This document shows positions 3,501-63,749 of a DNA stretch of 64,000 bases, piece by piece; position 1 is the stretch's first letter, and each line of letters opens with the position of its first letter. The stretch covers positions 28,334,001 through 28,398,000 of the forward strand of contig OX597830.1 of the NCBI GenBank assembly GCA_951406725.2, in the 5' to 3' direction. The stretch is from Octopus vulgaris (taxonomy: Eukaryota). The notes beneath the pieces are model-generated. The model saw nothing but the letters and a program-made list of their open reading frames with translations. It was not told the DNA's origin and searched no databases. Position numbers and translations under genes: made by a program.

Positions 3501-6124
3501 TGTGCACACATTCTGTTGCACAAATCTGCATTGTATATACAAAGATCTATATTGACTATAACAGGCTCAAAAACATACATGCACATATATGTTTGTGTAT
3601 TTATACATATATATATATATATATATATATATATATTCATTTATATAAATGTTTGTACATATATACACACGCACACGCGTACACACACGCACACACACGC
3701 ACATGTATATGTGTGCAGATGAAGCCTATAGCGGTCTCTATATACCATTATGTGCAAAACAAACGCATACTAAAACAGAAGTGTTTTACATCATAGAAGA
3801 CACTCTTCTTAGAAATACACATATACACGCATATAGTAGGGCATGCTTAAATATACATGAATACACGTGTGAGTGTGTGCCTGCGTGAGTTCGTGTGTAT
3901 ACTTGCACCTGTACATAAAGGTCCGTGGCAATGTATCTAGAGTACTCAACACTCAATCATATGGTGTTGATTTCAGTTTTAGAATCGAGCTCTCTGTTGC
4001 TACATTCAGAATGCGTATTAATTCATTGTGGTCTAGTCGATGTGGTATTGCCATCGGCCTCTACACCTGTAACATGCTCCCTCTTCTCCTGCACGGAGAA
4101 TGAGAGATTCAAAAAGCGTTATTCTGTCAGTAACTACATATATATACTGGAGCCAATTTGCGAAAAGGGCAAGAATCTATCAGGCAAAGTCCTTGTATAA
4201 ATGTCAGGGTCATATATATATATACATACACACACGTACACACACACACATATATATCTATCTATATATATATATATATATATATATATATATATATATA
4301 TATATATATACATATATGTACATATATATATATACATATATATATATATACATATATATATATATACATATATGTATATATATATATATATATATATATA
4401 TATATATATATATATATATATATATATATATATATATATATATATGTAGAAGGTTGAAAAGGAACACACGAGTTGATATATATATATATCTATCTATCTA
4501 TTTATATATATATATATGTGTGTGTGTGTGCATGTATGTGTGTGTGTGTGTATGTATCTGTGTGTGTAGAAGCTTGAAAAGGAACACACGAGTTTATATA
4601 TATGGAAAAAATTCAAGATAGAAAATGCTAAAATAATTTTATAAAAAACATTTTTGTACCAGTTTCATTCATTGAGACTTTTTCTACTGTAAGTATGGAA
4701 GACAAATTTTGGAAAAATTAAAAGAAAAGATTTTTTAAATGAATATTTGCATAGTGTTCAAATTCAAGTGGCATTTTCCTTGTTTCTGCCTGTCTCTGTC
4801 TCATGTTTACTCTTGTAAGTGTTTTTTATAAAATTATTTTATCATTTTCTATCTTGAAAACACATACCTCCCAACCCATCACAACCATACACTCCACAGC
4901 CACAAGCCCCCACTCATAGGTAAACTCACAGAGAAAAATGCAGTCGAATATTTTAAATCTGTTAAGTAATAGGCATGAAACGTTTGACACTTGAGTCACC
5001 TTACAAAGTTTTCTTTCGATTTAGAAATATGTCACACATGTATATACATGTATATATGCATATATGCAAATGTATATGAAAGCACAAACACACACTCACA
5101 ATTACACATACACTCACTACACACCATAAAAACAAAAAAAAATAATGACACTTTTTACATTAATATCTATTCACACGAGGCGAACCCGTTTCATCAAATT
5201 ATATTTTCATAGGTGTACTAAAAGACAGAGCAACAGAATAAAATGGTGGAATAAGAAATATAAAGATAGTACTATCAAATCGCTTTAACAAGTACTAAGC
5301 ATTAATAAACAAATGCACATGAAAGCATATAATATAGAACGAAACAATGAAGCTCGTATATGTTCTTACAGAAAGCTGACGTTGATAGAGTTTGGCTGAT
5401 CTATAATGAATTTAAGCGTCAAAACGAACTGTCAGTTAAATTTAGTTTGCCTGTGATTATTATTATTATTATTATTATTATTGTTGTTTTTGTTGTTGTT
5501 GTTGTTGTTGATGATGATGTCGTTGTTGTTGTTGTTATTGTGTTGTAATGTTGTTAATGTGATTCTTGTCATTGGAGGCTTGGGATTGTTTAGTAACTTT
5601 ACTCAGCAACACTTGTTTTGGTGACGTTAATATTATCAATGCATATGTCTTTGTGTTTGCACGCGTCTATGTGTGTCAGTAAGTATATATATATACATAT
5701 ATATATAAATATATATCAATATATATCAATATCAATATCAATATATATATATATATATATATATATACAATAAGAGGCTTCCAAATAGGAAAGCGTTGTG
5801 CTAGAAAGAGCAGTAGAAATCTCAAAAACCACAAAAAAGGATATCTTTCTTTGTTCGGTTCTTATTGTATTTCTATATGAATAATATATAGTCTAATGAC
5901 TAATTCGTTTTTTGTGCTAGGCCACTGGTAATAATAAATTTATTATTACCCTATTTATTATGGTTAAATATTATATATATATATATATATATATATATAT
6001 ATATATATATATATATATATATATTAATATGTGTATTTTCGACATTCTGTAAGCATACTCCCACATATACGCTATCACAATCATATATAGCTATACGCGC
6101 ACAAATATATATTCGTGTTATATA

Positions 6125-6352
6125 TTCACTATTGTTATTATTATTACTATTCTTCTTCTTCATCTTCTTCTTCTTCTTTCTTCTTCTTCTTCTTCTTCTT
6201 CTTCTTTTTCTTCTTCTTCTTCTTCTTCTTCTTCTTCTTCTTCTTCTTCTTATTATTCTTACTTTATTATTATTATTATTATTATTATTATTATTATTAT
6301 TATTATTATTATTATTATTATTATTATTATTCTTGTTGTTGTTGTTGTTATC
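6125..6352. repeat. Compound (TTC)n(TTA)n(TTG)n microsatellite
   Basis: Direct observation. Confidence 0.97.
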
Positions 6353-7976
6353 GGTTCCGAATAACTTAAAATAATCGTCATGTTGCAACTGGGGCCAACA
6401 CCAAAATGAGACACACTGGTAATTACAAGAACCAAGATAACTCCACAATGAAAATTACTATTAAGAAAGATTGTGAAACGTGATGGCAGCTGTGGTCAAG
6501 TTTTTTTTTTCTTCCCCTCAGCATACGTCGCCAGGACTGTAGTCTACAACAAATTGGCTTTTTAGATATAAACAAAGTAGAAAATTCTATTACTTAGAAT
6601 ATATCCATATTAAAAATGAAAATTTGCTAAGAGCGACTACTCTGAAAATTTTGTGGCATGCTTTTGGACAACGAAAGTAACGAAATTTACATTAAATTCC
6701 ATAGAATTTTCTTCAGTAGCATGTCAGTTTTGGAATATTATTGATTTTTGAGATTATTTTCCCTTCTAATTTGGATTCAGTTCCAATATTCACTAGACGA
6801 TTGTTTTACTTTCTCTGGAATCTTAAGTAATTTCGATAAATCACGAATTTATATCGAATGGAATTTCATATGCCTTACTCACTAGTGTTATTTTAATACG
6901 TCACTGGCCACTCTTCTTAGATCATTTTCCTGGATACATAATTCCACAAACAAGTAACTCATTCCAGTAACTTCAAGAATCGTCTACGAGCATGGAACTA
7001 TTAACTACAAGCCCACATGGTTTTATTCAATCCACTCTATAATACCTGATATTATGCACCTTTTAAAAATATAAAGTTTGGCACCAAATCTTTGGTGAAT
7101 TGACGAAACGATAAAGGTGTTTTTAACTTACACTTATAGTTATTTCAGTGATGAATTCAAATCTTCTCTGGATTGAATTCGTATTTCATATACTCGAATT
7201 CATTATATTATTTACAAGTTATAATTTTATGTATATATATATATATATATATATATATATATATATATATATATACGCTGGTGACGCTACATTAAGAATT
7301 TATTATTGACGTAATGAAAACTATTCAAAATCTTTCACCAAATATGCTTGTACAGGTGTTAATGCAAAAGTTGCATATGTAAACTATGTCTGCTTCGTAG
7401 AAGATAATGCAGAGAATTTTCAAAAATCCCATTACATTCAAATTTGAGATCACCTGGAGATTGATATCGCTTTTCAAATCCTTGTAAGTTTGTCTACGTC
7501 TTTCATATTTCCTCCTTAAATAAGTAGCAGTAGCATATAAGAGTGGCGTCAGTCAACTATAGTATTTTTTCCTCAAAAATCAATATCCAGACAGCAAGGC
7601 TCTGAAATAGACGGAAACAGAAGAATATCGCATTTAGAAAATTCGTCTGAATCTCTTTCGTATCTAAAGTTGCTGAAATGAAATCCACTCACCGAGCACT
7701 TCTTTCTTTCTTGGTGGGACATCATTTTAAAGATTGAAGAAGTATTAAGTAGATAACAAGTTTTATTTCTTTTTTTCTGTAAACACAGATATAAATTAAT
7801 TCTAGAAAATATCTTGGATTCGCTCATTAACAATTTTGATGTTTTGATTGAAATTAAAATATAATTTACACACATCTCATTAATTTTTTACAATCCGCGG
7901 TCATTTCTTGAAGGGTATAAAGGGGTAGTCAAACGAAGGACTACGCGTGCATTTAAAGTCTATAGTTTCAGATATA

Positions 7977-61565: not shown

Positions 61566-62932
61566 TAGATATATATATATTTATATATATGCTTTGGGCC
61601 CTCCCATAAGTAATGCGATTTGTTTTTCAATTGCATGAGCTAAAAGATGGAGAGGGACGGGATAAACTACCAGCATCAACTTTCGGTGAAAGCAGATAGA
61701 AATTTTACCATGTATTTATTCTTAAAAGAAGACAGAGTGCTACCCATTTGCAGTTGAGTGCAATGGACCCACATGAAATGAAGTATTTTTGTATTTTACT
61801 CAAGAACACAATGCACTGCCAGTGTGGGAATCGAAACCACTATATTTGATTTCACTAGGTGCGCCACAAATTTGACATATTCGTTTTCGTCCTTAATAGT
61901 ATCCACATGAAACTCTCTGTGCTGCATGATTCTGTAGGAAATGTTCTACGCCATCAGTACGGGGCAATATTTATTTATAAGTATGTAATGCACACACATA
62001 CACACACACACGCGTACACACGCACATGCGTGTATGTATATATATATATATATATATATATATATATATATATATATATATATGAACATAAATATTTATA
62101 TACATTATTGAAATAACATCAATTATTGAGATATCACGTATAGGACGTCTTATATAATATACTCAGTTATAGCTTTTGTTTATCGCATTAGAAGAAATGG
62201 TTCATGATTACAAGACTGCTCTTGTGGACTCTAGTTGCTATGGAAACGTGTCATGGCGCCATAATGTCAAATCTGAACAGCATCGCTATATAAAAATACA
62301 GAAAGTACGTGAAGGCTATTTGGGAAGCTTGAACACTTCAACATATTTCATCTCCACACACACAGACACACAGACACACACAGACACGCAAAGACACAGA
62401 CACGGGCAATACACACACATACACATACACACAAACACGAGCACATACATATACATTTAAGCTCACATAGGCACATACATATACACAAGCAATACATGCA
62501 TTGTATACAAACACACGAGCACGCTCACACATTCGGATACGTATATATACAAATGCACACGTACATATCTGCATGTGCGCTTGTGGATATCCATACGGTC
62601 CTTTTATAACGTAGCTTCACTTCATTTTACGCATAGATGCGAGTAATTGACACAAATTAAAATGTATGTGTTCGAATTTAACTCATGCTAATAACATATA
62701 GGTATATTTTATCAATAATATCGAAGTACGCATATGTGTACATGTAAGTAATTATCATGGACACAAATATATATATATATATATATATATATATATATAT
62801 GTGTGTGTGTGTGTGTGTGTGTGTATAATATATGTATATATATATATATATATATATATATATATATATATATATATATATATATATATATATGTAGAAG
62901 AAACACACGAGTTGATATATATGGAAAACTTA

Positions 62933-62968
62933 AAGTTGAAAAAATCTCAATGACTGTAACCGGTACTG
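62933..62968 (+). ncRNA. Variant hammerhead motif (U3-A8 core); homologue at 4654-4689 on minus
   Basis: Two-copy consensus CAG-TTGAAAA-AGTC(tcaat)GACT-GAAA-CCGG-TA-CTG. Confidence 0.58.
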
Positions 62969-63749
62969 AAATGTCTTTTATAAAATTATTTTAGCATTTT
63001 CTATCTTGACTTTTTCCCATATATATTGCATATATATATATATATATATATATATATATATATATATATATATATATGCAATATATATATATATATATAT
63101 ATATATATATACATACATATATATGCAATATATATATATATATATGTATATATCAGGAACGAAATGAAAAAATAATTAAAATAAGTTTAACTTCTTAGTT
63201 ATGCGGAGAATGATTAAATTTTAAGTAGTTATATATAGAGGAAAAATCTAAATATCACATAACGATGCTGTTTACATAATTACTTATAACATTATAACAA
63301 GTAGTGTTTGGAATTGAAATGATATCTATATACGTAATTTATAGATGAGCTTGGTATATATAATTCATATGAACATATAACAAATATAATACAGGTGGAA
63401 GAGTAATAAAGAAAAAAAATGAAGCACAGTTTGTTCGGACATATTTGTATCGAACAAATTTTATATACACGTTTCTGCTTTGCAGAAGTTTTCATTTCGT
63501 AGTAGTACACAAAAATCATTTATAACTGACCTTGGTTCGGTTTTAATGATTTTATGTAGATTTTCTTTATTTCAAGTCACCTGCATTTTAAATCCAGTGC
63601 AACGATGACGTGCACTTCTCGAAGGTTTGCAATGCTATTTTGGTTCACATGCTAATTCAGAGCAGTATTCTTATATGTATACATACATACATACATACAT
63701 ACATACATACATATATGCATACGCACACACACAAACACACACATATATA

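Follow-up and report, generated by a model that had tools for sequence, protein, structure and literature searches.

Minimal type I hammerhead ribozymes are known from the pseudo-long terminal repeats of Penelope-like elements (PLEs), where thousands per genome have been described in many families, with low cleavage even as dimers (Cervera & de la Peña 2014, PMC4209133; published systems are cited throughout from the portions of each source available to us). Most single motifs were read there as truncated PLEs, and pairs on opposite strands lay 100-700 bp apart. PLEs typically have an inverted 5'-truncated copy and a tail of 30-40 bp at one end, and prefer (TA)n as target (Craig et al. 2021, PMC8557442). 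Here we describe a 64,000-nt stretch of the Octopus vulgaris genome (assembly GCA_951406725.2, contig OX597830.1, positions 28,334,001 to 28,398,000), hereafter the window, in whose numbering all coordinates are given unless a contig is named. Hammerhead motifs occur in it at 13 named sites, which make up 10 loci and 9 sequence groups (A-I), beside a coding PLE. We are largely confident that these cassettes are minimal type I hammerheads set in inverted repeats with their 3' ends outward (tail-out), that they are likely the 3' ends of several PLE families, some of them probably lacking an open reading frame (ORF), and that they were likely inserted into (TA)n or AT-rich DNA by the reverse transcriptase (RT) and GIY-YIG nuclease of PLEs.

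Further systems bear on the comparison. Retrozymes were described in mussels by Cervera & de la Peña (2020, PMC7229834), in whose available text the word 'octopus' is absent, and animal retrozymes have been argued to be non-autonomous PLE derivatives arising from PLE ends (Li, Clavereau & Pollet 2026, 10.64898/2026.07.22.740005); the available part of the latter work lists no mollusc among its samples and reports cleavage in 1 of 9 dimers. Work on Poseidon PAc of Anolis (Frangieh et al. 2024, PMC11167929) connected the one-sided tail with an RT that starts internally once both strands of an AT-rich target have been cut, and found that insertion in vitro did not need the hammerhead to cleave. 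The dimer model of hammerhead action is repeated in one review. Among cephalopods, the giant squid genome paper counted 235 hammerhead loci, and a 2026 annotation of O. vulgaris assigned 6.83% of the genome to PLEs, in 190 consensus families of which 31 are recently active. The same annotation reported 893 recently active families of 'unclassified SINE' (short interspersed nuclear element), and the word 'ribozyme' is absent from its main text and one supplement. A literature search, with subscription papers, Repbase and Dfam outside it, found no catalogue of octopus or cephalopod hammerheads.

The motifs differ in how well their cores are preserved. All core bases are intact at three of the 13 sites: 30979 (core 31031, minus strand), which has one mismatch in stem III, 59403 (core 59408, plus strand), and 59846 (core 59898, minus strand), which is without helix I. 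Nine sites carry one core change, and 16211 combines one change with the absence of helix II. The changed bases are GGAA at 9456, ATGACGA at 17885, CTGACAA at 30841, GATA at 31188 and CCGATGA at 24366, where helix II has also decayed; at 46389, 46523, 62933 and 4654 a U3-A8 variant core is accompanied by one further change. Groups B and G share GGAA (GCAA in one G arm) in place of GAAA at core positions 12-15 (window positions 9488 and 46403/46546), a difference that may reflect a core variant common to both groups and not decay. Stem III is a perfect palindrome at 9 of the 13 sites, as a preliminary description of this stretch had said of most of them, and in group F it is an odd near-palindrome of 9 nt.

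Chance expectation was gauged with a descriptor for minimal type I hammerheads, which allowed at most two core changes and was written after the sites had been seen, using 753 block-dinucleotide shuffles as controls. At scores of at least 10 there were 4 matches against a shuffle mean of 0.094 (maximum 2), and at scores of at least 8 there were 5 against 0.37 (maximum 4), the latter being 5 of the 13 named sites, from four groups. The reversed window gave one match, with a score of 4.5. Within the window, then, the strict hit rate exceeds that of shuffled sequence, and the dozen type I motifs of the preliminary description are supported to this extent, but only three cores are intact and 16211 is unconfirmed. 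Two looser measures were dropped as diagnostics: a relaxed descriptor had a noisy background (21 matches, microsatellite false matches included, against 7.3 in shuffles), and the 3' half motif alone was nearly as common in shuffles (53 against 39.6, with 13 of 300 shuffles equally high). Because of this background the decayed sites need comparative support. Site 16211 is convincing in its 3' half only and is a possible, unconfirmed hammerhead; for this site alone a chance origin is plausible. Rfam gave no hammerhead match at gathering in the window, none in two local scans and none among the 150 listed of 470 matches; since a perfect control hammerhead reached an E value of only 2.2 in the Rfam search, this silence is uninformative.

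Comparative evidence comes from six metagenome loci (L001-L006) that encode relatives of the window nuclease, five of them with 3' flanking sequence (L004 has none). Four of these five (L001, L003, L005 and L006) carry a hammerhead with a perfect core and a palindromic stem III, ACCGGT or ACTAGT, 163-537 nt after the stop codon. The L005 hammerhead has a U3-A8 core, as at 62936. Like the window cassettes, L001 and L005 are followed by (TA)n, at 149 and 168 nt from the core. Among these four sequences, from which the structure itself was drawn, 7 of 9 helix pairs change on both sides; an alignment of the 13 window sites with three outside motifs (MAFFT) was misregistered, and the covariation count rests on the four outside loci. 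A model built from the four loci alone ranked the two group G hammerheads, 46423 and 46526, first in the window (rough E values of 0.035 and 0.048). A 94% fold-back palindrome also lies at the contig end of L005 (2704-2956 of that contig), downstream of its PLE.

The cassettes share a distinctive geometry. An inverted partner is present at 6 of the 10 loci, which hold 9 of the 13 sites, so that most motifs do lie in inverted-repeat cassettes, as first described, and the inverted 5'-truncated copy typical of PLEs is found. All six hammerhead fold-backs are tail-out, and each bears a tail or extension of about 26-100 nt at one end only, the second PLE trait. Group G (46280-46629) has arms 96.5% identical, U3-A8 hammerheads at 46423 (minus) and 46526 (plus), stem III ACCGGT, a left side that alone is extended, by about 31 nt, and (TA)n on both sides. 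Group D (17700-18043) has arms 96.2% identical, its core at 17924 (minus) and stem III ACAATTGT; the right arm starts at stem III and an extension of about 90 nt is present on the left only. Group F (30697-31517) comprises a plus-strand element at 31061-31517 (core 31194), an inverted copy at 30697-30922 (core 30893) and a 138-nt duplication over the inversion junction (core 31031), and is extended by about 100 nt at its right end alone. Group E (24250-24481), situated away from (TA)n, joins a decayed hammerhead (core 24372, plus) to a half hammerhead (24324, minus), with an extension on the left only and flanking direct repeats of 11 nt. Group A is represented twice, by a decayed U3-A8 hammerhead (4566-4857; core 4686-4680, minus) with its tail at 4566-4597 and an inverted tail-only arm at 4817-4857, and by a U3-A8 hammerhead (62894-63025; core 62936, plus) whose short inverted arm at 62894-62925 alone bears the tail.

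The remaining loci have no inverted partner. Group B (9456-9580, plus; boundaries approximate) is a single copy with a 3' tail and a near-intact hammerhead at 9456-9503 (core 9460, one change, stem III ACTGCAGT, descriptor score 13.5). Group C (16193-16752, plus) is a possible but unconfirmed decayed hammerhead without helix II (16214-16245), followed by an AT-rich tail up to (TA)n. Group H (59403-59598, plus; core 59408 intact) has a tail that ends at the (TA)n tract 59599-59725, which the tail of group I (59726-59905, minus; core 59898 intact, helices decayed) reaches from the other side; two unrelated hammerhead elements thus converge tail-first on one TA-rich tract. Two hammerhead-free relatives were also recognised, an additional copy of the 30-nt group A tail with (TA)n tracts on either side (4443-4478, minus) and a second group D locus, a tail-only fold-back between two (TA)n tracts (21857-21999). 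The tails of groups A and G are related, with none of 1000 shuffles scoring as high. The nine sequence groups bear out the earlier count of at least seven elements, but their being unrelated does not hold for the groups of 4654/62933 and 46389/46523.

The measured fold-back arms are 91-97% identical, and because they differ, read artefacts are argued against. An origin of the motifs by chance in AT-rich DNA, or of the fold-backs as assembly artefacts, strikes us as very improbable. The high background of the relaxed and half-motif scans, the lack of an Rfam match and the lack of a listed contig across the fold-back junction would fit such an origin, but they are opposed by the descriptor excess over shuffles, by arms that differ by 3.5-8.6%, mostly through substitutions, by the asymmetry of the tails, and by the restoration of the core in the wider family of group F (below), which largely refutes it for that group.

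The surroundings of the cassettes are AT-rich animal DNA, in which a simple-repeat mask covers 11,664 of the 64,000 bases and whole-window repeat finding is dominated by microsatellites. Tracts of (TA)n of at least 12 nt lie a median of 214 nt downstream of the sites compared with 624 nt for random positions (p ~0.009; 12 of the 13 sites), in a test whose sites are not independent and were picked by a reader who had noticed TA. Other repeats frequently have (TA)n close by as well: within 250 nt on either side, it is found at 12 of 24 of them and at 8 of 12 hammerhead sites. This distance test and the loose ends of group F contigs described below agree with a (TA)n or AT-rich target, with group E as the exception.

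Fold-backs without a recognised hammerhead are also present in the window. A repeat resembling a tRNA-derived SINE by appearance forms an inverted duplicate among three (TA)n tracts at 16864-17332, with its heads outward and no hammerhead; further copies, each single, lie at 19654-19847 and 22155-22329. This arrangement, together with that of an RT fragment at 15347-16192, both on (TA)n with arms lacking a hammerhead, lends something to the idea that fold-backs are made at the DNA level, while or after an element inserts, through strand invasion or the repair of hairpins at (TA)n, and have nothing to do with hammerheads. We regard this as unlikely, given that 6 of 6 hammerhead fold-backs are tail-out with a tail at one end.

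The Penelope element that had been noted alongside the motifs is a 5'-truncated and broken PLE copy at 13410-15725 (minus strand; 3' boundary approximate), with stop codons and a frameshift. Pfam and protein comparison identified an RT (RVT_1, 14761-15750, minus, E 3e-8), a CX4CxxC linker, a C-terminal GIY-YIG nuclease (13889-14311, minus, E 1e-5) and a 3' untranslated region, which confirms the order of RT followed by nuclease. The linker (C32, C37, C40) precedes the nuclease and conforms to CX2-5CxxC, and the nuclease keeps the invariant C and H residues of the CCHH motif. As these are a mark of the Neptune and Nematis clades, the copy appears by its motifs to be of Neptune/Nematis type. Its RT is most like a protein of Octopus sinensis (90% identity), with further octopus and bivalve proteins ranking next and the octopus matches spanning about 52 to 90% identity; no relatives were found in viral or prokaryote collections. 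A tblastn comparison of 127 fetched proteins with the window located coding remnants only at 13841-15708 and in an inverted arm at 15882-16199, plus a weak match at 40482-40619 (E 0.041). The inverted arm belongs to a plus-strand copy (15823-16192) of the RT segment 15347-15725, from which a (CA)n(TA)n(TG)n centre separates it; the two are 93.9% identical, and the copy is cut at its 3' side.

Between 15347 and 16752 this inverted left-flank copy abuts group C, as though copying had switched from the new element to flanking DNA, and the sequence before group B (9130-9270) may resemble this arrangement. Group C was considered as the 3' end of the neighbouring PLE and rejected, having no homology to its 3' untranslated region (score 23 against a shuffle maximum of 35). 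Because 4 of the 5 relatives with 3' flanking sequence carry a hammerhead, that of the window PLE has likely decayed. A hand count puts PLE-type sequence at about 6 kb (9%) of the window, a density that is ordinary in being close to the published 6.83%.

Next, group F was compared with other copies in public contigs. Four public runs (of 24), each consisting of contigs, were aligned to it at 80% likeness; depth in such an alignment does not give copy number. Matching contigs were found in every run (3337, 3814, 3234 and 291). Two positions at which window copies depart from the core are restored by the majority letter, to GAAA at 31230 (summed depth 12828/13273, 12100/12146, 13338/13488 and 356/356) and G8 at 30888 (777/972, 876/1196, 1538/1712 and 13/13). 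Group F is thus a high-copy repeat whose core is intact in the family majority, and the conservation of the core in a family consensus is borne out for this one of the nine groups. At the two main termini, loose ends continue into (TA)n, behind 31396 in at least 24 contigs and behind 31489 and 31495 in at least 30 and at least 14. Summed depth is greatest in the 3' tail and drops to 0-45 past 31534, the gradient expected from 5' truncation. In three of the four runs, contigs join 31517 to the element start (at least 1, 4 and 2 contigs), with 39 letters between in run X1, and these joints recur in two organisms at three landing points. As they leave no room for an ORF, the unit behind group F is likely ORF-less and about 490 nt long; the joints could be those of a non-autonomous unit or of a partial tandem at few loci. 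The 138-nt tandem in the window was ruled out as a retrozyme dimer, as it spans the inversion junction, and is read as a local duplication across it.

These joints bear on how autonomous the elements behind the cassettes were. Under one variant of our interpretation there was no radiation of non-autonomous elements, and all groups, with F among them, are ends of autonomous PLEs after severe 5' truncation. Coding relatives share the same 3' anatomy, the 190 PLE families and 6.83% of the O. vulgaris genome, like the 52-90% span of octopus RT matches, speak for many families, most single motifs were so read by Cervera & de la Peña (2014), and the joints, seen in 1-4 contigs per run, could come from a partly tandem arrangement at a single locus or a small number of loci. 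On the other side stand the same joints, seen in three of four runs, two organisms and three landing points with no ORF space, and we hold this variant to be a real possibility, somewhat short of even. We are more doubtful of a stronger reading, in which most groups would be specialised retrozyme-like elements, non-autonomous and mobilised by PLE proteins, that arise from tandem or circular RNAs of their own. The joints of group F, the lack of a coding remnant beside the other sites, the derivation of retrozymes from PLE ends (Li et al. 2026) and the 893 'unclassified SINE' families would suit it. However, the cassettes mostly begin about 10-130 nt from the hammerhead, as against 163-537 nt from stop to core in coding relatives, so that the absence of coding sequence says nothing on autonomy; moreover, the 138-nt tandem is a local duplication, and other copies were compared for one group in nine. 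The non-autonomous radiation moved by Penelope proteins into (TA)n that the preliminary description proposed therefore keeps its PLE-type insertion, its (TA)n ends and a likely ORF-less source for group F, but the other groups may be truncated PLE ends.

Published PLE biology suggests how such tail-out cassettes, as PLE 3' ends, may have formed. The GIY-YIG nuclease would nick the target, (TA)n or other AT-rich DNA; RT would prime at the nick and start inside the RNA, leaving a tail at one end only; it would usually stop after 100-450 nt, and the 5' junction would gain a second, inverted copy. Hammerhead activity would belong to the source RNA and not to the window copies: the source would be a head-to-tail transcript in which two palindromic stems III can pair, whereas the window copies are mostly mutated and their read-through transcripts are predicted to be trapped in a hairpin. 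The two motifs of a fold-back cannot pair as a dimer in cis because they lie on opposite strands. Dimers of groups B and D were predicted to fold as double hammerheads (two of the four sites folded). Helix II probability in isolation was 0.97, 0.35 (D) and 0.16 (F), and dropped to 0-0.06 when whole cassettes were folded. Since most cores are mutated and the fold-back transcript is predicted to lose helix II, self-cleavage of the window copies appears doubtful, and these copies are likely dead.

A number of results weigh against the cassettes being PLE 3' ends inserted by PLE proteins. No hammerhead was detected near the 3' end of the window PLE (13410-13830; descriptor, strict and relaxed), this PLE shares no 3' sequence with the queried cassette regions, no match was found between the cassettes and the window PLE or L001-L006, and no cassette could be tied by homology to a coding PLE or to the pseudo-long terminal repeat of an autonomous family. 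The RT arm (15823-16192) ends early at its 3' side, as would not be expected of a simple inverted 5'-truncated copy. Among the coding relatives, the L002 flank gave no descriptor match, and L003 and L006 are one family, leaving three independent positives; the model built from these loci placed 62933 fourth and 59403 fifth, with E values of about 2 each, and B, D and F are missing among its 16 rows. Site 24366 of group E is more than 900 nt from any (TA)n, so the reported proximity to (TA)n stands as a median tendency but not for every site. Group F is the only one of nine groups compared with other copies, and none of the contigs listed spans the fold-back junction. Finally, of the four sites folded as dimers, F and H were not predicted to be hammerheads, and helix II is weak in isolated D and F.

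Set beside the pseudo-long terminal repeat hammerheads of PLEs (PMC4209133), the window motifs are alike in being type I with a short helix I, a palindromic stem III and a U3-A8 variant, in forming many heterogeneous families, mostly of single motifs, and in their opposite-strand pairs. They differ in that several stems III are palindromes of 6-8 nt and that B and G read GGAA/GCAA, and the octopus host is not covered in the available text of that work. With the C-terminal, endonuclease-bearing Neptune and Nematis PLEs (PMC8557442) the window shares the RT, CX2-5CxxC linker and GIY-YIG nuclease, (TA)n targets, heavy 5' truncation, an inverted 5'-adjacent copy and a tail at one end; unlike them, groups D and F have tails of about 90-100 nt instead of 30-40 nt, and no hammerhead was detected in the coding copy of the window. 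Like animal non-LTR (long terminal repeat) retrozymes (PMC7229834; 10.64898/2026.07.22.740005), the cassettes are short and ORF-less with a type I hammerhead, a proposed PLE origin and mobility, and many monomers. However, retrozymes are defined by head-to-tail tandems, with canonical hammerheads and circular RNAs in the 2020 work, whereas the window holds dispersed fold-backs with minimal motifs, known from DNA only, and a tandem is suggested only for group F. The AT-rich cleavage on both strands and internal RT initiation of Poseidon PAc (PMC11167929) would explain the one-sided tails, but that element belongs to another clade and its hammerhead overlaps the ORF start.

It follows that the density, family diversity and fold-back form of the cassettes, which the preliminary description had thought possibly uncatalogued, are each already published for PLEs, as are opposite-strand pairs, (TA)n targets and the PLE origin of retrozymes. 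Any novelty may lie in the octopus families as a set and in the group F unit, which likely has no ORF. More speculatively, and in our estimate improbably, octopus would host a large unrecognised radiation of ORF-less hammerhead parasites of PLEs, such as a 490-nt group F circle, which would enter (TA)n by internal priming in the form of tail-out palindromes. These parasites would lie concealed within the 893 'unclassified SINE' families, and with their unusually long palindromic stems III and U3-A8 or GGAA variants would still cleave as dimers. If the cassettes are PLE 3' ends and nothing beyond that holds, a known PLE feature is extended to octopus and short octopus repeats could be classed by their hammerheads; if many groups are ORF-less, they would supply many recent natural families in which to ask if transposition depends on PLE hammerheads and by what route inverted copies and tails arise.

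Further hammerhead-like remnants were seen near the named sites. A GAAA-ACTAGT-A half motif lies on the strand opposite to the group F hammerhead at 30812-30822, 30951-30961 and 31262-31274, without a matching first half. A tail-out fold-back at 8753-9270 carries a half hammerhead (GAGA, ACCGGT, C) in both arms, at 8953 (minus) and 9160 (plus), with CTGAAGA at 9002 (minus), and is possibly a tenth, decayed group.

Several other repeats occupy the window. An element of about 870 nt at 28133-28998, with imperfect terminal inverted repeats of 187 nt flanked by TA, has the appearance of a decayed Tc1/mariner-type transposon. Inverted repeats of 356 nt (87% identical) lie 2.2 kb apart at 49037-51940, the left one within a 150-amino acid frame without a Pfam match. 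A two-copy repeat (74%) at 12561-12747 and 63756-63940 ends at microsatellites, and a 500-nt direct duplication (87%) at 39420-40595 surrounds an (ATT)n tract.

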